From a bacterium (GTDB taxonomy: Bacteria > Patescibacteriota > Minisyncoccia > UBA6257 > GWB1-50-10), in assembly GCA_021815205.1 (NCBI GenBank), contig JAKAHD010000003.1, forward strand, positions 27,239 through 91,238: DNA of 64,000 nucleotides, in the 5' to 3' direction. The notes under the pieces were generated by a model, which ran no database searches, was not told the origin of the DNA, and saw only the letters and a list, made by a program, of their open reading frames with translations. Each line of letters opens with the position of its first letter. Within the stretch, counting starts at the first letter, position 1. The position numbers and the translations under genes are program-made. Positions 7,823-64,000 of this stretch are shown piece after piece.

Positions 7823-8848
7823 TATTTTAAAGATGTCAGAAAATCTTCTCTCATAAGTGTGGTCGCGTAAAGTTCGTTCGTAACCACGGAGGGTTATGTT
7901 TTCTCTTTCTTCGTTATGCTGAAGGTAGTATTGAATCTTCACGATAAGATCTTCAAGGTCCTCGTAGATCACACACTCTTCTCCCGGTTTATAATATTCC
8001 GCGAGAGTATCCGCAATCTGCGTAAAAAGCAACGATCTGCACGCGGGAATTTCGAATATCCTCGCCTTAATCTGGGGAATGCTCTTTTGCCGCCACTCGC
8101 GCACATTATCAAAAAAATTCCAAAAATCGGGGACGATCCACCTCCCGGACCTCTTAAAGAAAAATCGTATTAATGGTTTTATTCCTATATATGCGGATGA
8201 TGGGTTGAGACCCAAACTTATTTTGCTTCTTCCGATGATTTCAACGAGTTCCTTTTGTTGTATGCGCCCATTTTTCCATCCGTTTCCATACACTTCGATG
8301 CGTATTCCGTGCTCTAATAACACCCGAATAACCCTCCCCCTTTCTTTATTCCAACTCCCCACAAAGCTTACGTCAATATCTTTGCTCTTCAAGGATGGCT
8401 TATAGGTACTCGTATTCGCGGCCCACTGCGAATGAATGACGTTCTGTATGCCGATTTCTTTATACTTCTCAACCGCCTTCGAATATGTTGTTACGACCCA
8501 TGAAAAGTGCGGGGCGTAGTATTTCGAATAGTTATCGAACCGCCAGTGATCGTCCGGAAACCACGCGACGCTCTTCGTAATGTTTTTTATCGCATCCAGC
8601 GTTTTTGTATCAAGCTCGTCGGTATACATAAAGGCAAAGAAGAGATCGGGCTTTTCATGGCGCACTGCCTCAAGGAGCTCCTGATTCATCTTTTCCTTCC
8701 CTACGTCGAGCATCCTTTCATACGGGAAGTAGAGCACCTCAGCTCCGGGGAAACGCGTGAGTGACTCATAAAAATTACTATGCTCAAAACTCAACCCTCG
8801 GGAGGGATTCATCTTATCGAATTGAAGAGCGGAATATACAATCTTCAT
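7811..8848 (-). CDS. CgeB-family (DUF3880-type) glycosyltransferase
   Basis: C-terminal ARIFEIPACRSLL...YYL-H-EER-I---G-ER-L-DHTYE-R pattern characteristic of CgeB-like GT1-fold proteins. Confidence 0.55.
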   Translation of the reverse strand: MKIVYSALQFDKMNPSRGLSFEHSNFYESLTRFPGAEVLYFPYERMLDVGKEKMNQELLEAVRHEKPDLFFAFMYTDELDTKTLDAIKNITKSVAWFPDDHWRFDNYSKYYAPHFSWVVTTYSKAVEKYKEIGIQNVIHSQWAANTSTYKPSLKSKDIDVSFVGSWNKERGRVIRVLLEHGIRIEVYGNGWKNGRIQQKELVEIIGRSKISLGLNPSSAYIGIKPLIRFFFKRSGRWIVPDFWNFFDNVREWRQKSIPQIKARIFEIPACRSLLFTQIADTLAEYYKPGEECVIYEDLEDLIVKIQYYLQHNEERENITLRGYERTLRDHTYERRFSDIFKILEL

Positions 8849-9558
8849 TGTTTCACTGCGCGCACAAAATACTCAAAACAAAGCAGTTCGCTTGACTTCT
8901 TATCGTGCGTACGCATCACACGGAGAAGAAAAAGCGCAGGCAGAACAAACATCCAAAGCGCTTTTGCGAGAGCGCTTCCTGAATATTGCTCGGCGATTGT
9001 CGGGAGTGTAATGAGCGCTTGGGATATCGAATCAAAATAGTCTCCGCTCGGAATAATCTGTGTTATGGTAAAACCAAGACGGCCAAGGTGCGTCTCATAG
9101 AAATACTTATTGAATCCCGTACAGAAGTGAAACGGAGAGAAATGAGTCATACTCACAAAGGGCGCGGAGAGAATAAGAACGCCTTTTTTCTTAAGGACCC
9201 TTGCAAATTCTTCAAGCGCTTTCACGGGATCAGGGACGTGCTCCAAAACCTCAGTACAAAGAACCGCGTCAAAAGAAGCATCGGGCACCGGTATCGCGGT
9301 TATATCGGATATGATATCAATCTTCGTTTGGTCCCATGCGCCGGTTTGTAACCCAACGCCATTTCCTTTCCCGTCATATCGCGCAAAATCTTGCGAGACA
9401 TACACTAAATGACTACACTCTTTCTTGAACGGACATTCACCCGCGCCGGCGTCGAGAATCCTTAATCCTCTGGGAAGTTTTCTCAATTCACTCGAGATCC
9501 ATGCAATCCTCGAATCTTCGTCCCTCGACGCAATTTTTAGTATTTTACCCTTGAGCAT
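8845..9558 (-). CDS. Class I SAM-dependent methyltransferase
   Basis: ILDAGAGEC motif I, VLCTEVLEHVPDP post-I region. Confidence 0.7.
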   Translation of the reverse strand: MLKGKILKIASRDEDSRIAWISSELRKLPRGLRILDAGAGECPFKKECSHLVYVSQDFARYDGKGNGVGLQTGAWDQTKIDIISDITAIPVPDASFDAVLCTEVLEHVPDPVKALEEFARVLKKKGVLILSAPFVSMTHFSPFHFCTGFNKYFYETHLGRLGFTITQIIPSGDYFDSISQALITLPTIAEQYSGSALAKALWMFVLPALFLLRVMRTHDKKSSELLCFEYFVRAVKQ

Positions 9559-9579
9559 ATTGGAAGGCGTTCCCCTGGG

Positions 9580-10353
9580 CTATCGCTTTTTCATAAACCA
9601 AAAACAACCACACCCATAATTCTCACGATCCGCCTGTGCACGAGTTGCGTGAGTAATGATGCCAATTCCGTTTTCCGAGAACTCAGGAATAAGCGAAAAT
9701 TCCTTTAACTCCAAATCGGAGAAATACTCCATAATTTGGCTAAAAGAATAGATGCGATGGGCGTTAAACATAACTTTTGGTTTCCCCACCGGCGTTACAA
9801 AGAGGAGCGATCCCCCAGGCGCAAGAACCCTTTTTAGTTCTTGTATCGCTTTCAGATCACCGTCGGGATCAATTGGGTCGCCGTAACGGCCGAGCCCCAC
9901 ATGTTCTACGGTATGCATACAAGAAAGGGAGCTCACTTCCCCGTCACGGAAGGGGAGCTTCATTAAATCTCCCGGAAGAACTTCGAGATTCGGCAACTCA
10001 AGAAGCGGCGGCCGATAATCATAAAATCTCACCGGGACAAATGCCGATATGATCGTGCAGAAATATAGACTGGACGCCACGTCCACATGCATCGAGGGAT
10101 GTATCTCCCTCACCTTCCGCGCGGCCCACGCGGTGTGGTACACATAATGTCGATCAAAACTCGTGGTCTTTGTTTTTTCGCGCACCTGCGGATACAAGTC
10201 CTTCCATAATGCCGTAAAGCGCGGGTTGCGCGCGCTCATCTTTCTAAACGCAAAGTAATCCGAGAGAATCAAAGCACGTGAGGCATAGTTGATTCCCACA
10301 TTCAAGAATCGATTTAATTTTTTGAGCATCTTCCTCATATACGGACTGTTCAC
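9580..10353 (-). CDS. Methyltransferase-fold protein (DUF268-like)
   Basis: HTVEHVGLGRYGDPIDPDGD motif typical of DUF268 methyltransferase-like proteins. Confidence 0.5.
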   Translation of the reverse strand: MNSPYMRKMLKKLNRFLNVGINYASRALILSDYFAFRKMSARNPRFTALWKDLYPQVREKTKTTSFDRHYVYHTAWAARKVREIHPSMHVDVASSLYFCTIISAFVPVRFYDYRPPLLELPNLEVLPGDLMKLPFRDGEVSSLSCMHTVEHVGLGRYGDPIDPDGDLKAIQELKRVLAPGGSLLFVTPVGKPKVMFNAHRIYSFSQIMEYFSDLELKEFSLIPEFSENGIGIITHATRAQADRENYGCGCFWFMKKR

Positions 10354-11363
10354 TCATCAATGAAAACTTGCTTATACGGCCTCTCAAGCGCCCGCCGCCT
10401 TCTTCTTTCAAGATACGCGTCCATGAACTTCGGCATCACGCCAGCGACTCGGGAATATCGGATGAACGCGCGGAATACCCGCTTTGTGAAAGTCAGAAGG
10501 ATTTCCGCCATCGCTCTTGGATGAAATATCTGTTCAAGGAAGAACGTGATGTGGGAAAAGCGGATTGGGAGGAGAATTCCTTCCCCGTTTCTAAACATAT
10601 GCGTCTGCCGATTGCACAAAATATCCATGCGGTACTTCCGGCATTCTCTAAGATACCTCTTGAATTTTAGGTCGGCAACCCCGCTTCTTAGTTCCTGCGC
10701 TCCCAATTGATTGTCGTGTATTCTTCCATAATTTGCCACCACAGGAAGAAAATAAGGAAGATATCCCCGGGTATGGAACGCGAGATTGAATTCAAGCCAC
10801 GTCTCAATATCCCGCGCGGCATTCGCCGTACGCGGAGGGAAACATTCTTCCATTACGCGCTTCCTCACCACAAAGTTCCCTTCGGGAAGCCAAAACTGGG
10901 TGCGGAGCCAGTAATAAAAAAACGCCTCTTTTTGCGGAGGCTGTCGCCGATGGAATTGCGGATAAGAGACGGCGAGCAACCGTCCGTCTTCGCTCATATA
11001 CCGGGGCAATCCCCACACCAAAGAAACATCGGCGTGCGTATCGAGCACTTCCGCGCATTGCGCGAACCAGGTTTTTCTAAGGTAGCCGTCCGAGACGGCA
11101 CACTGGGCTACATACTCTCCCCTTGCGAGCGCAAGCCCTTTCCTGAACGCCTCAAGATATCCGCTGTCTTTCTCGGAGATCCACTTGATTCCCGCGTAAT
11201 CCTTCAATATCTCGAGCGTTCCATCGGACGATCCGCCGTCAATCACCACACACTCAAAATTCTTATAGGTCTGACCGAGAATGGAATCCAGAGTAGCCCG
11301 CAGGAATTTTCCGGTATTGTACGAGGCGACGATAACGGTGAGTTTTGGATTTCCTTCCGCCAT
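10350..11363 (-). CDS. Family 2 glycosyltransferase
   Basis: LTVIVASYNTGKFLRATLDSILGQTY...VVIDGGSSDGT; start at MAEGNPK preferred. Confidence 0.75.
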   Translation of the reverse strand: MAEGNPKLTVIVASYNTGKFLRATLDSILGQTYKNFECVVIDGGSSDGTLEILKDYAGIKWISEKDSGYLEAFRKGLALARGEYVAQCAVSDGYLRKTWFAQCAEVLDTHADVSLVWGLPRYMSEDGRLLAVSYPQFHRRQPPQKEAFFYYWLRTQFWLPEGNFVVRKRVMEECFPPRTANAARDIETWLEFNLAFHTRGYLPYFLPVVANYGRIHDNQLGAQELRSGVADLKFKRYLRECRKYRMDILCNRQTHMFRNGEGILLPIRFSHITFFLEQIFHPRAMAEILLTFTKRVFRAFIRYSRVAGVMPKFMDAYLERRRRRALERPYKQVFIDE

Positions 11364-11367
11364 ATGC

Positions 11368-12363
11368 TTACAAAACAGGGGACCACACGACAACCGAATA
11401 ACCGTCTATGAAAAGACTCCCGATATAACTACGTCTCGCTTCAAGGATATTCACCTTCCCCTGCTGTTCGAGTTCCCGCAACGCGTCGAGAAATCCTGAG
11501 AGGTAGTTGCGCTTCTTAAAATAGCGGATTGAGAGAAAATCAAGGAGGTTTTCCTCATCTAAAAGCTCTCCCACGGGCTCGATATGCACGCAAACGGACG
11601 GCTTATTCTCGATGAGATAATCAAGGAATTCCTTGAAATGCGCGCCAACTTGTTCTAGGGCAGCGACTGTGACTACGCCGCTCTTCGGCGCGAGCTTGAA
11701 CGACATGTCCGGCGTGAACACGTTAAAAACCTTCCCTTCAACATTCGCATCAAGGCCGCTTGACGCGATACCGTTCACAAGCTCCGCGGACGACCGCGCC
11801 CAATCCAATCCATATAACCTTGCTGCGGGGTTCACTTCGCGGATTCTCCGAAGATTGTGTCCCGTACCACATCCGAATTCATATACGGAAGAAACTCCTT
11901 TGAGAAACTTGTCGAAAATCCAGTACTGGACCACCGAGAGCGAGTGTTGTTCGAAGTCGGGCGAGAGCGGTTTAATAAAGTCCTGTCTCCAGCGGACCAC
12001 CGGATATTTTCCGAAATACCGCGGCGTGAGGGCCTCCCACGAGGGAGCTTTCTTAAACGCCGCAAGGTTCTCTCCCCACCCCGTTTCCCACTGCCCGATA
12101 CGATGCTCACCTGAAAAAACAACGGAGTCCGCGGTGAGAAACTGCACGATCTTCAAAAGCCACGCGTCCCGCTCATCGAGCGTAAGCCGCGCATACTTGA
12201 AATGGTGCCGCGCGATCCTGGTCTTTACTTCCGTACTTAAGATATCGCCGAAAGCGGCTCCAAAATCTTCCGGCGTGAGAAAAAATTCCTCAAATGGTGC
12301 TGAATCATTTTTATTCATTGGACTTATTTCCTTTTTCGTCCTGGAACGCGAGATTCCACTCAA
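11368..12363 (-). CDS. SAM-dependent methyltransferase (start may be 12318)
   Basis: EFGCGTGHNL glycine-rich motif I, C-terminal half methyltransferase fold. Confidence 0.55.
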   Translation of the reverse strand: MSGISRSRTKKEISPMNKNDSAPFEEFFLTPEDFGAAFGDILSTEVKTRIARHHFKYARLTLDERDAWLLKIVQFLTADSVVFSGEHRIGQWETGWGENLAAFKKAPSWEALTPRYFGKYPVVRWRQDFIKPLSPDFEQHSLSVVQYWIFDKFLKGVSSVYEFGCGTGHNLRRIREVNPAARLYGLDWARSSAELVNGIASSGLDANVEGKVFNVFTPDMSFKLAPKSGVVTVAALEQVGAHFKEFLDYLIENKPSVCVHIEPVGELLDEENLLDFLSIRYFKKRNYLSGFLDALRELEQQGKVNILEARRSYIGSLFIDGYSVVVWSPVL

Positions 12364-40356: not shown

Positions 40357-40451
40357 ATAAAGTAATACGATAAAAATACAATAGTGACACGGTGGAAATA
40401 CAATCGCACAACTGCATCACTATTGTATCACCACCGTATCACTTTCTCTTG

Positions 40452-40752
40452 TGCCGCGGGGGTGAGTTGAACACCCGACGCCCGCCTCTTCCAAAGCGAC
40501 TGGACTATCTCATCACCCACCGCAACTAGATAAGAGTTGGGTGGGGCTGGGCGCTATTGCAGGATTATTGTTGGGACTCACCTGCTAGTCTCTACACCTT
40601 CCGAAGAACCGTAGCCCTCTTCGGCTTGGCTCGGGATTGTTTCTCATACAACATCGAGAAGTTTTCCCCGAGTTCACCCAGTTTTTAATTTTGCATTACT
40701 GCAAAATGCCCCAAAGATCTAGGGCGGCGCTCTACCGCTGAGCTACCGCGGC
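40452..40752 (-). tRNA. tRNA-Phe (GAA) interrupted by a 229-nt group I intron after U33
   Basis: 5' exon 40721-40752 and 3' exon 40452-40491 join into canonical cloverleaf (acceptor GCCGCGG/CCGCGGC, A73, anticodon loop CU/GAAGA, T GGGTG TTCAACT CACCC). Confidence 0.75.
40492..40720 (-). ncRNA. Group I self-splicing intron in tRNA-Phe anticodon loop
   Basis: Follows exon U; P1 CCCU/GGGG with U-G at splice site; 3' terminal G; R-like GUAGAGACUAG and S-like GAUAGUCC able to form P7; P2 and P8 hairpins. Confidence 0.65.
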
Positions 40753-56121: not shown

Positions 56122-57327
56122 TTGTTCATGGAACAACAAGAAACTAGTATCACAACGGAAACTTTCACGCCGAATCCGAACATTAAATTGGTTCTGAATG
56201 GCGGGAAAACTACGCTTGACAGCGCAACTGTGCCGGTCGAGTGGCATTTTTCGGATGAACTCATCGCAAAAAAGCCGCGCTACATTGTGATCTGCGATCA
56301 CGAAATGCCGATTGAGAAGCTGAAAGATAAGATCTCCTACTGTGGAGGTTATCGAACTGCATTCTCAGTGAGAGATCTCGCAGGTTACATACAAATCCAC
56401 AAACCGGGAAGTCACCATTTTATTGCAATCGTTTTCTACGATTATAATGACGGTAAGGGGTTATCTGGATTGTCACGCGCAAGACAATGGATTTCCGGGA
56501 AGAACGGACAATATGATTACGGCATCTTCTACGATTGTCTCAAGGACGACTCCATGGCTACATGGAACGCGGAAGTGACTGCGGTCGAATTCGAAGTTCC
56601 GAAGGAACTCTTCGCCGAAAAATCGGAGACATGGTTTGGCACATTAACATGGAAATGGGTAAATCGGTGGTTCTCTCATGCGCCCGTCGATCAATGCGAA
56701 TACCGGAAAAGAAAGGTTTTCGCATTCACCGCGCAGCCTTTCCTGCTGTTCATTGGTCGTTTGATCGCGGGAATATTCTGTACCTTTTATTCATTGGTCG
56801 GGGCTTTGTGTCTACTTTTCATCGGCTTTCAACCGAGTAATATCTTCAAAAATCTTCTACACTCTTGGTGGAACTTGAATTTGTTCGACTTAGACCTTCG
56901 AAACACCAATGAGTGGGGCTATAAGAACGACTGGAGGAAATGGACGAGAAAGGACCGCTCGCGAAGAAAAATCCCCCTATTTGCCGTGCCAGCACTAGAT
57001 GTAGTCGCACTTGGAGCGATGGCGGGACTTATTTTTCTTGTTGTACATCATACCATGATGTTCCTTTTCTTATCTCTTATTGCAATCTACGCCTCCGTAG
57101 TTGCAAAAATATACAGCAATGTAGTAAAATCGCGTGAAAAGAAAGAAGAGGTAAAGAAGGAGATTATGGACTTCCACCTTGAATACTTAAAAAAGAATGC
57201 TGGCATGAGTTCGGTGCCGGCAAGCGTGGACATAAGGAGCATCATCCCGAAAGTGGATAATAGAACAAAATTGCATTTAAGCTTTTGGGCTATGAAAGCG
57301 AAAGTGTGCAAACCTTTCGCAAATTGA
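56122..57327 (+). CDS. Hypothetical protein: about 190-aa soluble N-domain plus C-terminal TM helices, in lower-GC islet
   Basis: Strong AAAGGAGG RBS; sigma70-like TTGACT-17-TATTAT upstream; noticeably lower GC than neighbours; no recognisable domain. Confidence 0.5.
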   Translation: MFMEQQETSITTETFTPNPNIKLVLNGGKTTLDSATVPVEWHFSDELIAKKPRYIVICDHEMPIEKLKDKISYCGGYRTAFSVRDLAGYIQIHKPGSHHFIAIVFYDYNDGKGLSGLSRARQWISGKNGQYDYGIFYDCLKDDSMATWNAEVTAVEFEVPKELFAEKSETWFGTLTWKWVNRWFSHAPVDQCEYRKRKVFAFTAQPFLLFIGRLIAGIFCTFYSLVGALCLLFIGFQPSNIFKNLLHSWWNLNLFDLDLRNTNEWGYKNDWRKWTRKDRSRRKIPLFAVPALDVVALGAMAGLIFLVVHHTMMFLFLSLIAIYASVVAKIYSNVVKSREKKEEVKKEIMDFHLEYLKKNAGMSSVPASVDIRSIIPKVDNRTKLHLSFWAMKAKVCKPFAN

Positions 57328-59114: not shown

Positions 59115-59942
59115 TTAAATAAAAATGCGGAGGTTCGCTTGTATGTCTTCAAACACCCTATCGCGCATTCCACTGTCTGGAATGTGTTTTTCTTTCTCCC
59201 GAAGAATCTCTCTAAAAAGCTTCGCCGATTTCTCATACACAGCCGTAATGTTGTGTTTTTTCAACTTCGCGGCATACGCCCCGAACGTCTCAAGTTGCAT
59301 AATGATTTCCTCAAGTATTTGAAACTGGATCGGGTGTATGGCAAGTTTTTTATTTTCCCGTTCAAGCCACAATTCAGAGAGTTCTTTCACCGTAGCAACA
59401 TCAGCGCCAATTACTACCCTTGGAATCTGCCCTAATTCGCCGCGGATATTCATATGATCAGAGATAAAATATTTCACCGTGGCAAGTTTCCCTTGCACGA
59501 GCTCTTCTTTTATGCGATCAAATTTTTTCTGCGTGTCGGAACTAAATGTGGCGTCAATTGCGAGCGCGAGATATGAAGCGGATGATTCCGTTTCACGGAG
59601 CTCAGCGACGCTGTCTACTCCGTTCTTCACATCATCAAAACGCGATGTTTTTATGGTTGTCACATTGGGCCCAAGCCACTCATTCAACTCTGCCTGTTCA
59701 TGCAACACGCATTCGAAAATGGTGGCTAATTTTTCCGTATGTGCGCGTGATGGATCTTCCTGCACTCTGAATTTTCTTTCCATCTCTGCAACATATTTTT
59801 CATCTTGTACAATATTTTCTTCACCGTATAAATCCTTGAAATCGCCTAATGGTATGCGTTCGCGCGCGAGCGTTTTTTCTGCGGTAATATACGCTTGATC
59901 TATCGCTAAATTCTCGTAGATATCAGACTCAAAATTTTTCAT
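59115..59942 (-). CDS. Hypothetical protein (lower-GC, no recognisable domain)
   Basis: 275-aa ORF with coding-like composition; between trpS and ileS. Confidence 0.4.
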   Translation of the reverse strand: MKNFESDIYENLAIDQAYITAEKTLARERIPLGDFKDLYGEENIVQDEKYVAEMERKFRVQEDPSRAHTEKLATIFECVLHEQAELNEWLGPNVTTIKTSRFDDVKNGVDSVAELRETESSASYLALAIDATFSSDTQKKFDRIKEELVQGKLATVKYFISDHMNIRGELGQIPRVVIGADVATVKELSELWLERENKKLAIHPIQFQILEEIIMQLETFGAYAAKLKKHNITAVYEKSAKLFREILREKEKHIPDSGMRDRVFEDIQANLRIFI

Positions 59943-59946
59943 AGCG

Positions 59947-62900
59947 CTATTGCAACTTTCTCAATCCAATCCAAATATCGGATTCGTTGATTTTTGTGTC
60001 ACACTCCGCATCGAACTTCTCGGAGCGCTTCCACTCGACCGATGCGGCATTCGTTTCTTTCTTAATAAGGGCGGTGTTCTTCTCGACGATACTCGCGAAC
60101 TCCTTGTCCCCCTCCATCATGAGCGCGATCGTGTCCTTCGGCTCAAGCCTCGCGTCCTGGCGCAATCCCTGGATCGTGCGCATAAGCTCGCGGAGCATTC
60201 CCTCTTCGCGGAGTTCGTGTGTAATCTCCGCATCGAGCACGAAGTCCTCCTTGAGATTTTTGTCGAAACTGATTGTCTTCACATTGATTTCGTCTTTGAG
60301 TATCTCCAAAAGTTCTTTCTGGCCGCTTAATTCCTGATTCCTAATTCCTAATTCCCGTAAAGGTTGTCTCACCTTTATTCCCCGTTCCGCCCGCTTCGCG
60401 AGGACCGCGCTCGCCAAGTCGCGTACTTTCGCCATATCGGTCAATAATTTTTGATTTTTGATTTTTGATTTTTGATCTACCTTCGTCCACTCCGCCATAT
60501 GCACCGAGAGCCCTTTCCCGTCGAGCGAGAGGTAGAGCGATTCGGCAAAGAAGGGGGTAAAGGGCGCCATAAGTTTCGCGGTCTCAAGAAGCGCATACCG
60601 GAGCGTCGCGGATGCCGCCGCGTAGTCCTCTTGACTTTCCGGTTTCTGGAGCCGCCGCCGCGACCGGCGGATATACCAGCGCGAGAGGTCCCCCGCAAAA
60701 TTCTCGATGTTCCGCGCCGCGGTCCCTATGTCGTAGACATTCAAACTCTTTGTCACCACATTGATCGTCTCATTGAGCCGCGCAAGGACCCATCTGTCAA
60801 GAATGTGCGAAGGTTTTAGGTTTAAGGTCTTAGGTTTTAGGTTTCTATCGGAATATGTTTCGCAGAAGACATAGGAGTGATACAAAAGTTGGAAGAACTG
60901 GCGCGAAACTTTTCCGAGATCCGCCTCATCAAACCGCTTGGGCTCGCCCGGCGGATTCACGGTGTAGCAATACCACCGGACGACATCAACGCCGTACTTC
61001 GCGATCATGTCCCACGGGCTTACGATATTCCCCTTCGACTTCGACATCTTCTGCCCGTGCTTATCGAGAATAAGCCCTAAGGCGATCACGTTCTTATAGG
61101 GTGCCTCAAGTCCCAAGAGCGTCGCGAGCGCGAGGAGCGTATAAAACCAGCCGCGCGTCTGATCAATTCCCTCGACGATATAGTCGGCGGGAAAATCGAT
61201 CTTCTTTATGAGCGCTTTGAGATTCTGCGGGGTGAGCTTTGGTGTCTTGGCAGTGAGCTTCAAATTGAACCTGAAGGGAAAGTGTTCCTGGGCGAAGGGC
61301 ATCGCACCAGAATCAAACCACACGTCCATCACTTCCGGTACTCGATGCATCGCGGTTTTGCACTTCGGGCACTCCACGGAAAATTCGTCAATGTAGGGAC
61401 GATGCAGATCAAACTCGCCCGTCTCGCTTCTCGGTACGGAACGCAGGGTGCCATACTCCACCTCGCCGTTCTTTACGTAATCCTCGCCGCGCCTATCCTT
61501 CTCGGCGACCGCGTCCGTACTCGTCCATCCCTGCATAATATGCTGGAGCATCCAGACGCACGATTCGTGCGTCACAATAAGAATCGTCTTCCCTTGATAT
61601 TTCTTCTCCATCTCACGCACAAAATCATAGAGTCGCGCGCGCAAATCGGCGAAGCTCTCCCCGTTCGGCGCCCGCTTCAGAAACTTCTCGTGGCGCGAAC
61701 CGTAGTATCCTCGGTACGCGTCATACGGCATGTCGTTGAAGTCGCCAAAATCGAACTCGCGGATACGCGCATCGAACACGATCTTCGGAAGCGAGAGCTT
61801 CTCCTTGAGCACCTCGGCGCTCTCCTTGGTGCGCGTGAGATCGGAGGCAAAAAAGAGATCAATCTTTTCCTTCTTTATTTTTCGTGCGGCGGCCTCGATC
61901 TGCGTTCTCCCCTTCAAGGTGAGGTGGTACGGCTTCTTCTCGGGCCAGCTCACGACCATATGCTTTGTATTGCTCTCCGCCTCGCCGTGGCGGATGAAGA
62001 TGTACTTGTTTGTGCTCTTCGGCGCAAGTGATTCAAGATCCTTCACGCTCCCCGGCACATGCGCCTTCCCGCACTGCTCGCACTGCCAGATCGGCAAGGG
62101 AGTGCCCCAGTACCGCTCGCGGGAAACCGCCCAATCCTTCACCTCGCGAAGCCACTCGCCGAAACGCCCGTCCTTAATTGTTTCCGGAACCCAGTTGATC
62201 TTTTTATTTGAAGCGAGGAGTTTCGAGCGAAGCGAGCTCATCGCGATAAACCACGAGTCGCGCGCATAGTAGAGGAGCGGCGTACCGCACCGCCAGCAGT
62301 ACGGGTAATCGTGCGTATATTCTTCGGTACGGAGGAAGAGGTTTTTTGACTTTAAATATTCAAATATCAGTTCCTCCGTTTCTTTGCTTTTCACGGAGCG
62401 TCCCTCAAGTTCCTTCACGTCCTTTGTAAACTTCCCTTGTTCATCCACCGTGTGGTGCTGCGGGAGACCGATTCTTTTTCCGAGATTATAATCGTCTTCT
62501 CCGTACATCACGGCGGTGTGCACGACGCCTGTGCCGTCCGTCGTCGTCACGAAATCAGCGGGATACACTTTATATGAGGTGTCGGATTTAAGCGCAGGCA
62601 CGTCGAAAAGCGGCTCGTACTCTAAACCGATCAGATCCTTTCCTTGTATCGTAGTAAGTATTTTGTATTCAGTAGTAAGCACCTTGCTCGCTAAATCTTG
62701 AGCAACAATGTAATTCTCCCCCGTATCCTTACTGCGCACTACTTGATATGTAATACTTTTCCCCACGGCGAGCGCGACATTCCCGGGAAGCGTCCACGGG
62801 GTTGTGGTCCAGGAAAGAACATAAATGTCTCCTCGAGTTTTTAGTTTCGAGTTTTTAGTTTTTAGTTTGAATTTTATATAGACTGAAGTATCCTTCACTT

Positions 62901-63501
62901 CCTTGTATCCCAACGCGAGTTCGTGCGAAGAAAGCGCGGTGCCGCATCGCGTGCACCACGGCACTACCTTATGGCCCTTGTAGAGCAGTTTCTTCTCCCA
63001 AATTTGTTTCAAAAGAAACCACACCGATTCGATGTAGTTGTTCTCATAGGTTATGTAGGGATTTTTAAGATCGAGCCAGAAGCCCATACGGCGCGTAAGA
63101 CGCTCCCACTCGTCTTTGTACTGCCAGACGGACTGTCTGCACGCCTCGTTGAACTTCGCGATACCGTACTGTTCGATCTCCTTCTTCGATTTCAGGCCGA
63201 GTTTTTTCTCGACCTCGAGCTCCACGGGAAGCCCGTGCGTATCCCACCCCGCGCGGCGCGGGACGTAGTAGCCGGACATTGATTTATAGCGAAGTATTAT
63301 GTCCTTGAAACTTCGCGAGAGTACGTGATGGATGCCGGGGCGGCCGTTTGCGGTGGGAGGTCCTTCATAAAACACGAATTTTCTTCCCCTACTCTCTCTT
63401 CGTGCGGCAAGGGATTTTTCGAATACCGAATTTTCTCGCCAAAATGAAAGTATTTTTTCTTCTATTTCGGGGAGAGAAAATTTCTCAAGTCTGCGCAACA
63501 T
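59947..63501 (-). CDS. ileS: Isoleucine--tRNA ligase with inserted histidine-phosphatase (PGM-like) domain and several micro-repeat insertions
   Basis: HIGH-region PPTANGRPGIHH, editing domain (TTPWTLPGN), KMSKS; aa about 531-735 form RHG-type phosphatase domain (IFIRHGEAESN...ILIVTHES). Confidence 0.85.
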   Translation of the reverse strand: MLRRLEKFSLPEIEEKILSFWRENSVFEKSLAARRESRGRKFVFYEGPPTANGRPGIHHVLSRSFKDIILRYKSMSGYYVPRRAGWDTHGLPVELEVEKKLGLKSKKEIEQYGIAKFNEACRQSVWQYKDEWERLTRRMGFWLDLKNPYITYENNYIESVWFLLKQIWEKKLLYKGHKVVPWCTRCGTALSSHELALGYKEVKDTSVYIKFKLKTKNSKLKTRGDIYVLSWTTTPWTLPGNVALAVGKSITYQVVRSKDTGENYIVAQDLASKVLTTEYKILTTIQGKDLIGLEYEPLFDVPALKSDTSYKVYPADFVTTTDGTGVVHTAVMYGEDDYNLGKRIGLPQHHTVDEQGKFTKDVKELEGRSVKSKETEELIFEYLKSKNLFLRTEEYTHDYPYCWRCGTPLLYYARDSWFIAMSSLRSKLLASNKKINWVPETIKDGRFGEWLREVKDWAVSRERYWGTPLPIWQCEQCGKAHVPGSVKDLESLAPKSTNKYIFIRHGEAESNTKHMVVSWPEKKPYHLTLKGRTQIEAAARKIKKEKIDLFFASDLTRTKESAEVLKEKLSLPKIVFDARIREFDFGDFNDMPYDAYRGYYGSRHEKFLKRAPNGESFADLRARLYDFVREMEKKYQGKTILIVTHESCVWMLQHIMQGWTSTDAVAEKDRRGEDYVKNGEVEYGTLRSVPRSETGEFDLHRPYIDEFSVECPKCKTAMHRVPEVMDVWFDSGAMPFAQEHFPFRFNLKLTAKTPKLTPQNLKALIKKIDFPADYIVEGIDQTRGWFYTLLALATLLGLEAPYKNVIALGLILDKHGQKMSKSKGNIVSPWDMIAKYGVDVVRWYCYTVNPPGEPKRFDEADLGKVSRQFFQLLYHSYVFCETYSDRNLKPKTLNLKPSHILDRWVLARLNETINVVTKSLNVYDIGTAARNIENFAGDLSRWYIRRSRRRLQKPESQEDYAAASATLRYALLETAKLMAPFTPFFAESLYLSLDGKGLSVHMAEWTKVDQKSKIKNQKLLTDMAKVRDLASAVLAKRAERGIKVRQPLRELGIRNQELSGQKELLEILKDEINVKTISFDKNLKEDFVLDAEITHELREEGMLRELMRTIQGLRQDARLEPKDTIALMMEGDKEFASIVEKNTALIKKETNAASVEWKRSEKFDAECDTKINESDIWIGLRKLQ

Positions 63502-63748
63502 GGTAGTTATTGTAATGGGGAAGCGGAATTTTCGCAAAACACGGACACCGAATTTTAAATATCCATCATATGAGAAAACCCACCATAATATGCGCACACA
63601 TCCGCCCCTCAAAAGTAACGATTACTAAATCAATTTAGTACAACGGAAGGAGGTCTTGCCTCAATATGATGTATTGAAGCGAGGCGTCCTGATTTTAGAG
63701 TACGTGTATCCGCGTAAATCAGTTTTAAATCCGCGGTAATCCGTTTTT

Positions 63749-64000
63749 TTACATTCTCTCCACCACTTCGATCCCCAGAAGCTCTAAACCCTTCCTCAGC
63801 ACATCCGCAGCAACGCTGAGGAGCGCGAGCCGTGCAGCACGCACCTTCTCATTCGCCCTCAAGACAGGCAGTGTTTGATAAAAATAATTTGCGTCTTTCG
63901 CGAGCGCATAGAGATAATCCGAAAGGTGATTTGGGTAGTACGAGCGCGTAATCTCCTCAACCACCTGGGGAAATTCAAAAAGGTCCATAATAAGCTTCTC
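63749..64000 (-). CDS. argS: Arginine--tRNA ligase, C-terminal DALR anticodon-binding domain (5' part beyond window)
   Basis: Frame open to window end; ...RLALLSVAADVLRKGLELLGIEVVERM terminal ArgRS signature. Confidence 0.7.
   Translation of the reverse strand, partial: EKLIMDLFEFPQVVEEITRSYYPNHLSDYLYALAKDANYFYQTLPVLRANEKVRAARLALLSVAADVLRKGLELLGIEVVERM

Follow-up and report, generated by a model that had tools for sequence, protein, structure and literature searches.

A predicted histidine phosphatase embedded in the CP3 zinc knuckle of isoleucyl-tRNA synthetases from Patescibacteria

Introduction

Aminoacyl-tRNA synthetases are among the best-studied enzymes, and the accessory domains known from them serve in editing, tRNA binding or assembly. 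Several such domains are inserted into the synthetase itself, as is the case for the connective peptide 1 (CP1) editing domain of isoleucyl-, valyl- and leucyl-tRNA synthetase (IleRS, ValRS and LeuRS), the leucine-specific domain of LeuRS and the INS domain of ProRS. Outside the synthetases, Mycobacterium tuberculosis Rv2228c is an RNase H/CobC-like acid phosphatase whose phosphatase part is assigned to cobalamin or acid phosphatase activity, and the Escherichia coli CCA-adding enzyme has an HD domain with 2',3'-cyclic phosphodiesterase and phosphatase activity. Here, we analyze a stretch of 64,000 nucleotides from a patescibacterial genome (Minisyncoccia; UBA6257; GWB1-50-10; assembly GCA_021815205.1, contig JAKAHD010000003.1, positions 27,239 to 91,238), hereafter called the window, in which the ileS gene encodes an IleRS with a histidine phosphatase domain inside its third connective peptide (CP3).

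CP3 of Thermus thermophilus (Tt) IleRS holds a zinc motif, and no connective peptide varies more than CP3, whose topology differs in the Tt, Sa and Ca IleRS (PMC7191050). The linker between CP2 and CP3 helps to form the pocket that takes up the tRNA 3' end (A76) in yeast IleRS (PMC7955072).

Results

The window encodes a type-2 IleRS with a complete histidine phosphatase inserted in frame

The gene and the inserted domain are located as follows.
59947..63501, minus strand: ileS coding sequence, 1184 amino acids (aa) plus stop, a type-2 (eukaryote-like, MupA/MupB-like) IleRS bearing the insert
61417..62022, minus strand: inserted His_Phos_1 domain, aa 494-695, identified by PF00300, the alignment to structure 8c8w, AlphaFold2 (AF2) modeling and Foldseek

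The open reading frame (ORF) on the minus strand runs uninterrupted over 59947..63612, and neither a stop nor a frameshift interrupts the 1184-aa ileS product. The ATG at 63501 was chosen as the start because the N-termini of homologues agree there (MLxxLxKFSLPE). Pfam assigned tRNA-synt_1 (E 1.9e-116), His_Phos_1, Anticodon_1 and DUF5915 to the product; the His_Phos_1 match (PF00300) covers aa 501-659 with an E-value of 8.7e-32 and 110.8 bits against a cut-off of 21.7. The NCBIfam equivalog for ileS, TIGR00392, scored 898.4 bits against a cut-off of 621.4, with the type-2 models MupA and MupB next best. These Pfam and NCBIfam scores for an insert in an IleRS are far beyond chance. In the Protein Data Bank (PDB), the full protein matched IleRS2 (8c8w) best (E 2.6e-242), with the Tt enzyme (1ile) also among the best matches, and its CP1 editing domain aligned to 1wk8/1ue0. 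In the alignment to 8c8w, the 202 residues of the insert occupy the place of only residues 479-484, and GC content is level across both insert junctions.

The original prediction, made from the letters of the window, had described a long ileS of about 1184 aa with a complete RHG-type histidine phosphatase of about 205 aa inserted in frame between intact IleRS motifs, and had distinguished it from a terminal fusion and from a pseudogene. The single continuous ORF bears out the length, Pfam, the 8c8w alignment and the AF2 model agree on the inserted domain, and NCBIfam adds to these in supporting the intact flanks. Each sequence string that it had quoted as a landmark is present exactly once in the ileS product:
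aa 470-479: PIWQCEQCGK
aa 501-511: IFIRHGEAESN
aa 527-534: LTLKGRTQ
aa 548-565: DLFFASDLTRTKESAEVL
aa 640-652: ILIVTHESCVWML
aa 698-706: DLHRPYIDE
The span given for the insertion, 61408-63022, holds at one end: 61408 is the last base of the D698 codon, whereas 63022 lies about 1 kb too far, in codon 160-161. The first base of the insert is 62022, and 63022 looks like a slip for this number.

The embedded phosphatase is a lineage-wide trait

All of the 120 best full-protein homologues (54-76% identity) carry PF00300, and those with a named source belong to Jorgensenbacteria, Wolfebacteria, Paceibacterota, Minisyncoccia or the "Patescibacteria group". An exhaustive HMMER scan with the insert alone against 1.8 billion representatives resulted in 1310 matches at E <=1e-10. 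About 60% of the best 150 of these are IleRS, full-length or truncated by the contig end, with the domain at the same site, and among the same 150 the embedded copies reach IleRS with flanks that are only about 40% identical. We also scanned GTDB with one genome per species and a narrow family alignment as the query, which yielded at least 113 relatives, and 80 loci were kept. The domain is embedded in IleRS at the same site in 68 of the 80 sampled loci, many of whose record titles are automatic labels such as "uncultured Saccharibacteria" or "Bdellovibrionales". We conclude that the embedded phosphatase is an old, lineage-wide trait of a large part of the Candidate Phyla Radiation (CPR).

This distribution bears on the explanations that the locus is a chimera produced by assembly, that the insert is an intein or is otherwise mobile, or that the gene is a pseudogene in decay; nothing speaks for these beyond the unusual length of the protein. 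A chimera and a pseudogene were rejected on the continuous ORF, the intact IleRS motifs, the level GC content and the identical architecture in more than 100 independent assemblies from many studies. An intein was rejected on the PGM-like fold of the segment and on its junctions (...SLAPKSTNKY and ...SETGEFDLH), which lack a Cys/Ser start and a His-Asn end; a Pfam search of the ileS product for Hint, intein, LAGLIDADG or endonuclease domains gave no match. The original prediction had likewise seen no intein motifs. The selfish insertion that it had offered as one option finds no mobility or splicing features and is at odds with lineage-wide purifying selection and a conserved junction motif. 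Its concern that the segment might be an ordinary CP insertion can also be set aside: close relatives carry the segment, and their RHG and His catalytic residues are invariant. We regard an artefact or a selfish element as practically out of the question.

The inserted domain retains the catalytic residues of branch-1 histidine phosphatases

The predicted catalytic residues are encoded at the following positions.
61984..61992, minus strand: RHG motif R504 H505 G506, with H505 the predicted phospho-accepting nucleophile
61831..61833, minus strand: R557, second phosphate-binding arginine (SDLTR motif)
61756..61758, minus strand: E582, predicted general acid (RIREF motif)
61567..61569, minus strand: H645, second catalytic histidine (IVTHES)

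The nearest solved sequence to the insert is PhoE (1EBB/1H2E; E 8e-12), whose R9, H10, N16, R59, E83 and H151 align with R504, H505, N511, R557, E582 and H645 of the insert. We extended the comparison to a census of 351 domain copies, comprising embedded, tandem and free-standing ones. The Arg and His of the RHG motif and the second Arg are retained in 351 of 351 copies, the second His in 350 and the acid (Glu or Asp) in 349. The catalytic residues are also invariant or nearly so in an alignment of 102 family sequences, and catalysis clearly appears to be under purifying selection. Modeled on its own by AF2, the insert reached a predicted local distance difference test (pLDDT) score of 96.7, and Foldseek matched it with probability 1.00 and template modeling (TM) scores of 0.7-0.79 to GpgP, PspA, PhoE and CobC (6s2q, 4ij5, 1h2e and 6e4b). 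The PF00300 score, the RHG motif together with the second Arg, the second His and the acid, and the PGM-like fold place the insert among the branch-1 histidine phosphatases.

A finer assignment by family models was less direct: the insert scored below the curated cut-offs of every named NCBIfam equivalog, the best match being CobC (TIGR03162) with 86.6 bits under a cut-off of 162.9. The insert could in principle be the cofactor-dependent phosphoglycerate mutase (dPGM) of the cell, merely housed in IleRS. It belongs to a PGM-like superfamily, and automatic pipelines label fragments of it gpmB/K15634. However, its dPGM scores fall far short of the respective cut-offs (dPGM_arch, 73.5 against 225; PRK01295, 48.9 against 316; PRK01112, 29.6 against 320), and it reads RIREFDFG and VTHES where dPGMs have ERHYG and HGN. 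It measures 202 aa against about 230-250, with the dPGM insert and tail missing, and a lineage with the domain in ValRS (see below) encodes two genes for cofactor-independent phosphoglycerate mutase (iPGM) and enolase beside valS. The glycolytic reading, ruled out by equivalog scores, motifs and length, is largely refuted and in our view very improbable. The insert is predicted to be a phosphatase-type member of the superfamily, not a mutase.

A role as a component of a defence system was considered and dropped, as the insert had no match in PADLOC-DB at E-values up to 0.01.

The phosphatase is mounted between the two halves of the CP3 zinc knuckle

The synthetase elements around the insert and the conserved motifs of the host enzyme are listed here.
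63325..63336, minus strand: class I signature in the non-canonical form G-I-H-H, aa 56-59, the same form as in 8c8w (PGVHHAL)
62104..62136, minus strand: CP2-CP3 linker DWAVSRERYWG, about 30 residues before the insert and directly followed by CP3
62071..62082, minus strand: first CxxC half of the zinc knuckle (C474, C477), upstream of the insert
61417..61437, minus strand: C-terminal junction motif VPRSETG (family consensus PRDExG)
61360..61371, minus strand: second CxxC half of the zinc knuckle (C711, C714), downstream of the insert
61036..61050, minus strand: KMSKS motif, aa 818-822, intact

The phosphatase is nested at the tip of the CP3 zinc knuckle, a surface loop of the Rossmann-fold core, with one CxxC half on either side of it, and all four knuckle cysteines are kept in the 102-sequence family alignment, where C474 is invariant and C477 is present in at least 90% of the sequences. 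At the insertion site, the insert-less relative L001 reads ...GSIKELEKLSSVKVTDLHKHFID..., and the window reads ...GSVKDLESLAPKSTNKY[phosphatase]...PRSETGEFDLHRPYID.... By this comparison, the linkers amount to no more than about 6 residues. At the C-terminal junction, P690, R691 and G695 of the PRDExG motif are nearly invariant in embedded copies, and stand-alone phosphatases end without this motif. The length of the insert is confined to 196-214 aa across the 102 sequences. The full-length AF2 model has a mean pLDDT of 91.4 and a predicted TM score (pTM) of 0.85, with pLDDT values of 88-97 through the insert and its junctions. These model scores point to a phosphatase that is rigidly docked as an extra lobe on CP3.

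The host enzyme has the equivalog score, class I signature, KMSKS motif, and CP1 editing and anticodon-binding domains of a type-2 IleRS. Its GIHH signature is common to the whole family (consensus GRPGIHHVL); the GxHH form of IleRS2 has been linked to mupirocin hyper-resistance (bioRxiv 10.1101/2023.01.31.526100). Judging from the intact motifs and the lineage-wide conservation, isoleucine-specific aminoacylation is probably kept despite the insert.

A second extra segment, RFNLKLTAKTPKLTPQNLKALIKKID (aa 743-768; 61198-61275, minus strand), lies between FPF and FPADY in the same protein. It is about 15 residues longer than the matching loop of 8c8w, and another IleRS (P0243, see below) bears a GNAT domain in about the same region.

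The same phosphatase occurs next to ileS and in other synthetases

About a third of the best matches to the insert are free-standing proteins of 185-210 aa that are 33-43% identical to it. In each of the four stand-alone loci that we looked up, 1-17 nt separate the phosphatase gene from an insert-less ileS (931-968 aa) downstream of it, and argS precedes it on the same strand at a distance of 2 nt to about 1.6 kb. The order of such a locus is argS-(x)-phosphatase-ileS-x-recO, and seven more GTDB loci have a free-standing copy directly after argS. The window keeps argS followed by ileS with no gene between them, the phosphatase being found instead 1.5 kb inside ileS:
63749..64000, minus strand: 3' end of argS, cut by the window edge and directly upstream of ileS, identified by tblastn with the ArgRS of L001 (41% identity over 81 aa, E 4e-16)

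We found no Rfam match at the gathering threshold in the 248-nt spacer between argS and ileS, where a leader RNA or T-box was sought. A second phosphatase copy or remnant was not detected by tblastn in the window, nor was a second copy present near any embedded locus among the sampled GTDB loci. The embedded and stand-alone states are considered complementary because embedded loci are without a second copy nearby.

Further arrangements involve other partners. An ArgRS with the phosphatase on its C-terminus was found at the same syntenic position, and one contig encodes a C-terminal fusion of the phosphatase to Sua5/YrdC. ValRS bears the domain at the homologous point of CP3, after WFGHRIPVYY and before DTWFSSG. 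This ValRS clade comprises at least 33 clusters with 52-100% identity, its closest insert-less relatives are ValRS of Magasanikbacteria, and its valS belongs to an operon valS-tyrS-argS that has enolase and two iPGM genes nearby. Some IleRS and ValRS hold two to four phosphatase copies, some of them at a second site, and one IleRS (P0243) holds both the phosphatase and a GNAT domain.

In the neighbor-joining (NJ) tree of the phosphatase domain, the free-standing copies form a coherent clade that includes the ArgRS fusion, and in the tree of IleRS without the insert, enzymes with an adjacent phosphatase are scattered among embedded ones. These NJ trees, which bear no support values, are a lead only and hint that there may have been more than one switch between the embedded and the adjacent state.

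The pattern could be explained by a hitch-hiker, that is, an unrelated housekeeping phosphatase of the argS-ileS operon that was fused into tolerant loops and termini, gained nothing but co-expression or compaction and acts on a substrate outside translation. The variability of CP3 with its differing topologies would accommodate this, CPR genomes are compact, the ArgRS fusion requires only the trivial loss of a stop codon between adjacent genes, and the domain shows no features beyond those of a generic PhoE-like phosphatase. However, an insertion 1.5 kb inside the neighboring gene is no read-through fusion and needs two in-frame junctions, and the homologous CP3 site is used in ValRS, whose gene adjoins no stand-alone copy. 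The conserved junction motif, the tight length control at 196-214 aa, the copy numbers of up to two to four in some synthetases and the complementary distribution of embedded and stand-alone forms likewise speak against a passive passenger. We consider this explanation doubtful, albeit a serious contender.

Several individual loci are recorded here as observations in their own right. The multi-copy synthetases are P0124, P0145, P0160, P0230, P0231 and P0239; P0124 consists of the N-terminal part of a ValRS followed by four tandem phosphatase copies, and P0230 and P0231 have one copy at the second site, just before the anticodon-binding domain. P0243 (JGI contig, 1066 aa) has an IS200-like Y1 transposase domain at aa 340-461 in its N-terminal part, followed by the phosphatase and the GNAT domain, and may represent an IleRS with many added domains, an assembly error or a wrong gene call. 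In L088 (108-8001) and L089 (264-8164), which belong to the lineage with the domain in ValRS, valS(phosphatase)-tyrS-argS is closely preceded by enolase and by two iPGM paralogues in tandem (522 and 523 aa); the same upstream block contains a gene for a 1105-aa Laminin_G/Calx-beta/PG-binding protein, and a PemK toxin gene is located downstream. Two of the stand-alone loci have a NUDIX hydrolase gene close to the phosphatase gene: in L003 (4915-6004), it and a 205-aa unknown gene separate argS from the stand-alone phosphatase, and in L005 (499-948) it precedes argS by about 2.4 kb. L069 (about 8081-11600) encodes an IleRS of 1164 aa although a stand-alone phosphatase sits upstream; the extra length comes from about 150 aa in the N-terminal half that are not a His_Phos domain.

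Other features of the window

Directly downstream of ileS lies a 275-aa ORF (59115-59942, minus strand) without a Pfam or PADLOC match; relatives have another small unknown ORF in this place, with recO after it. A 401-aa ORF (56122-57327, plus strand) also had no Pfam or PADLOC match.

The window further contains a tRNA-Phe(GAA) gene (40451-40752, minus strand) that carries a 229-nt intron within its anticodon loop. Rfam matches this intron over its full length to the group I family (RF00028, 63 bits, 40482-40730), and ARAGORN with default settings mistook the 3' part of the gene for a tRNA-Pro. Among bacterial tRNA genes, group I introns are mainly known from cyanobacteria and a few proteobacteria.

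Discussion

A recruited phosphatase and its possible substrates

It is firmly supported that an intact PhoE/CobC-type phosphatase was recruited by class Ia synthetases in Patescibacteria and that it forms, in the window, a rigid CP3 lobe on the housekeeping IleRS. We estimate at roughly two chances in three that this recruitment reflects function and not just co-expression, because the distribution in cis and in trans is complementary, ValRS has an independent and stable insertion at its homologous site, the junction is conserved and the copy number has expanded in places. On the grounds of comparative genomics, we infer a functional coupling of the phosphatase to class Ia synthetases, for which the enzyme would be supplied either in trans, from a gene flanked by argS and an ileS that lacks the insert, or in cis, from within IleRS, from CP3 of ValRS or from the C-terminus of ArgRS.

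We propose that the insert may act as a phosphomonoesterase in cis, to which the synthetase scaffold presents the substrate. A substrate presented by the synthetase is favored because tethering helps only if the scaffold binds the substrate, as a synthetase does tRNA, and because CP3 adjoins the segment that contributes to the A76 pocket. The candidate substrate would be a 2'/3'-phosphate or a pyrophosphate that blocks the ribose at the 3' end of the bound tRNA: His505 would accept the phosphate, water would free it, and a chargeable CCA end would be restored beside the synthetic site. Our confidence in a tRNA 3'-end phosphate as the substrate is low, at about 0.2-0.3. The other option of the original prediction, a moonlighting or regulatory module that would act on a phospho-substrate or on a tRNA end, may hold. 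In a speculative and rather improbable extension of our proposal, the class Ia synthetases of Patescibacteria would have a tRNA-end repair enzyme built in, which would strip a block on A76 left, for example, by ribotoxin cleavage or by toxSAS-type 3'-pyrophosphorylation. If true, repair and charging would take place on one enzyme, which would represent the first RNA-end phosphatase of the superfamily and a new kind of synthetase quality control.

Several points weigh against this proposal. We know of no member of the histidine phosphatase superfamily that acts on RNA ends, and the nearest relatives in sequence and fold (PhoE, CobC, PspA and GpgP) are small-molecule phosphatases. Net charge and isoelectric point (pI) are not distinctive in embedded compared to stand-alone domains, so that an electrostatic signature of RNA binding is missing. 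Since CP3 is the most variable CP element, recurrent insertion at this site might reflect tolerance rather than function, and operon linkage in streamlined genomes is weak evidence of a shared function. A role at the tRNA 3' end is no obvious match for the Sua5 fusion.

Alternatively, the domain could be a phosphatase for small molecules that serves the adenylate chemistry of its hosts, acting on a phosphate compound that all partners make or meet, such as pyrophosphate (PPi), AMP or another nucleoside monophosphate (NMP), or a phosphorylated amino-acid analogue, and thereby pulling the reaction forward, recycling or detoxifying. The nearest relatives are small-molecule phosphomonoesterases, of which PhoE and CobC act on nucleotide-like substrates, and all partners of the domain (IleRS, ValRS, ArgRS and Sua5/TsaC) split ATP into AMP and PPi, which is established enzymology. 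However, tethering is of little kinetic use for a freely diffusing molecule, dephosphorylation of AMP would be wasteful where purines cannot be made, and the rigid and conserved CP3 mounting is left unexplained. In addition, to our knowledge the hydrolysis of PPi has not been established for branch-1 histidine phosphatases. We judge such a substrate to be unlikely on balance, yet well worth keeping in mind.

The superfamily also includes the protein phosphatases PGAM5, Sts-1 and SixA, and the KMSKS region is where the kinases HipA and HipT modify GltX and TrpS by phosphorylation. The insert might by analogy be a phosphoprotein phosphatase that clears an inhibitory phosphate from the synthetase itself, for example from a KMSKS-loop serine hit by HipA/HipT-type kinases, rendering the enzyme self-resetting or immune. 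A domain tethered in cis suits an intramolecular substrate, and the synthetases that host it are all class I enzymes. Nevertheless, the domain is no nearer to SixA, PGAM5 or Sts than to metabolic phosphatases, no Hip-like kinase was found in the window or the loci examined, Sua5 is not a class I synthetase, and PADLOC gave no match. We regard this alternative as improbable.

Significance and consequences for annotation

A phosphatase that is, by its residues, catalytically intact and lies in the catalytic core of an IleRS seems to be without a described counterpart. Should its substrate be tRNA or the synthetase, ultra-small symbionts would have a further layer of quality control in translation or of resistance to toxins; should its substrate be a metabolite, translation would be linked to phosphate or nucleotide metabolism in cells with minimal metabolism. 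The alternation between embedded and adjacent states offers a clean natural experiment on how a gene becomes an internal domain.

Current annotation obscures these enzymes. The NCBI pipeline often demotes them to "class I tRNA ligase family protein", and JGI labels one of them "valyl-tRNA synthetase/broad specificity phosphatase PhoE". KEGG-style scoring of the insert as gpmB may falsely fill the phosphoglycerate mutase step in metabolic reconstructions of CPR bacteria.

Comparison with known systems

The original prediction knew of no described aminoacyl-tRNA synthetase with an inserted PGM-family phosphatase, and we likewise found no description of this architecture in the open-access and bioRxiv literature, subscription-only papers being outside the scope of the search. 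The closest curated precedent for an IleRS with an extra and unrelated catalytic domain is NCBIfam NF040702 (ileS_w_GNAT). Its accessory domain is a GNAT and not a His_Phos domain, and the GNAT of P0243 is located elsewhere, after the DVWFDSG segment. The window protein scored 335.6 bits with this model against a cut-off of 1999 and had no acetyltransferase match in Pfam, which places it outside the family.

The CP1 editing domain, the leucine-specific domain of LeuRS and the INS domain of ProRS are likewise spliced into the core and act on a ligand held by the synthetase; they are aminoacyl-ester hydrolases or tRNA-binding modules, and none is a phosphatase. In Rv2228c and the CCA-adding enzyme, an RNA- or tRNA-handling enzyme is paired with a phosphatase module, as it is here, but these are terminal fusions and not insertions, and the HD fold is unrelated. 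The RNase H/CobC-like model NF005567 matched the window protein weakly (68.7 bits).

On the side of the guest, PhoE/YhfR of Geobacillus stearothermophilus (1EBB, 1H2E), CobC, PspA and GpgP (Rv2419c) share the fold and the size of about 200 aa, and all six active-site residues of PhoE have counterparts in the insert. These enzymes are free-standing, soluble and mostly assigned to defined small-molecule substrates, whereas the insert is nested in a synthetase and, unlike PhoE-type enzymes, has an extra C-terminal helix-strand and the PRDExG junction. On the side of the host, Priestia megaterium IleRS2 (8C8U/8C8W) and Tt IleRS (1ILE) have the same family assignment and domain order as the window IleRS. 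They share with it the CP1 editing domain, the CxxC...CxxC knuckle of CP3 and KMSKS, and 8c8w also shares GxHH. About 6-35 residues separate the CxxC pairs in these two enzymes, compared to an independent, predicted catalytic domain of 202 residues in the window. The host is an ordinary type-2 IleRS and the guest an ordinary His_Phos_1 domain close to PhoE; it is their combination that is unusual.

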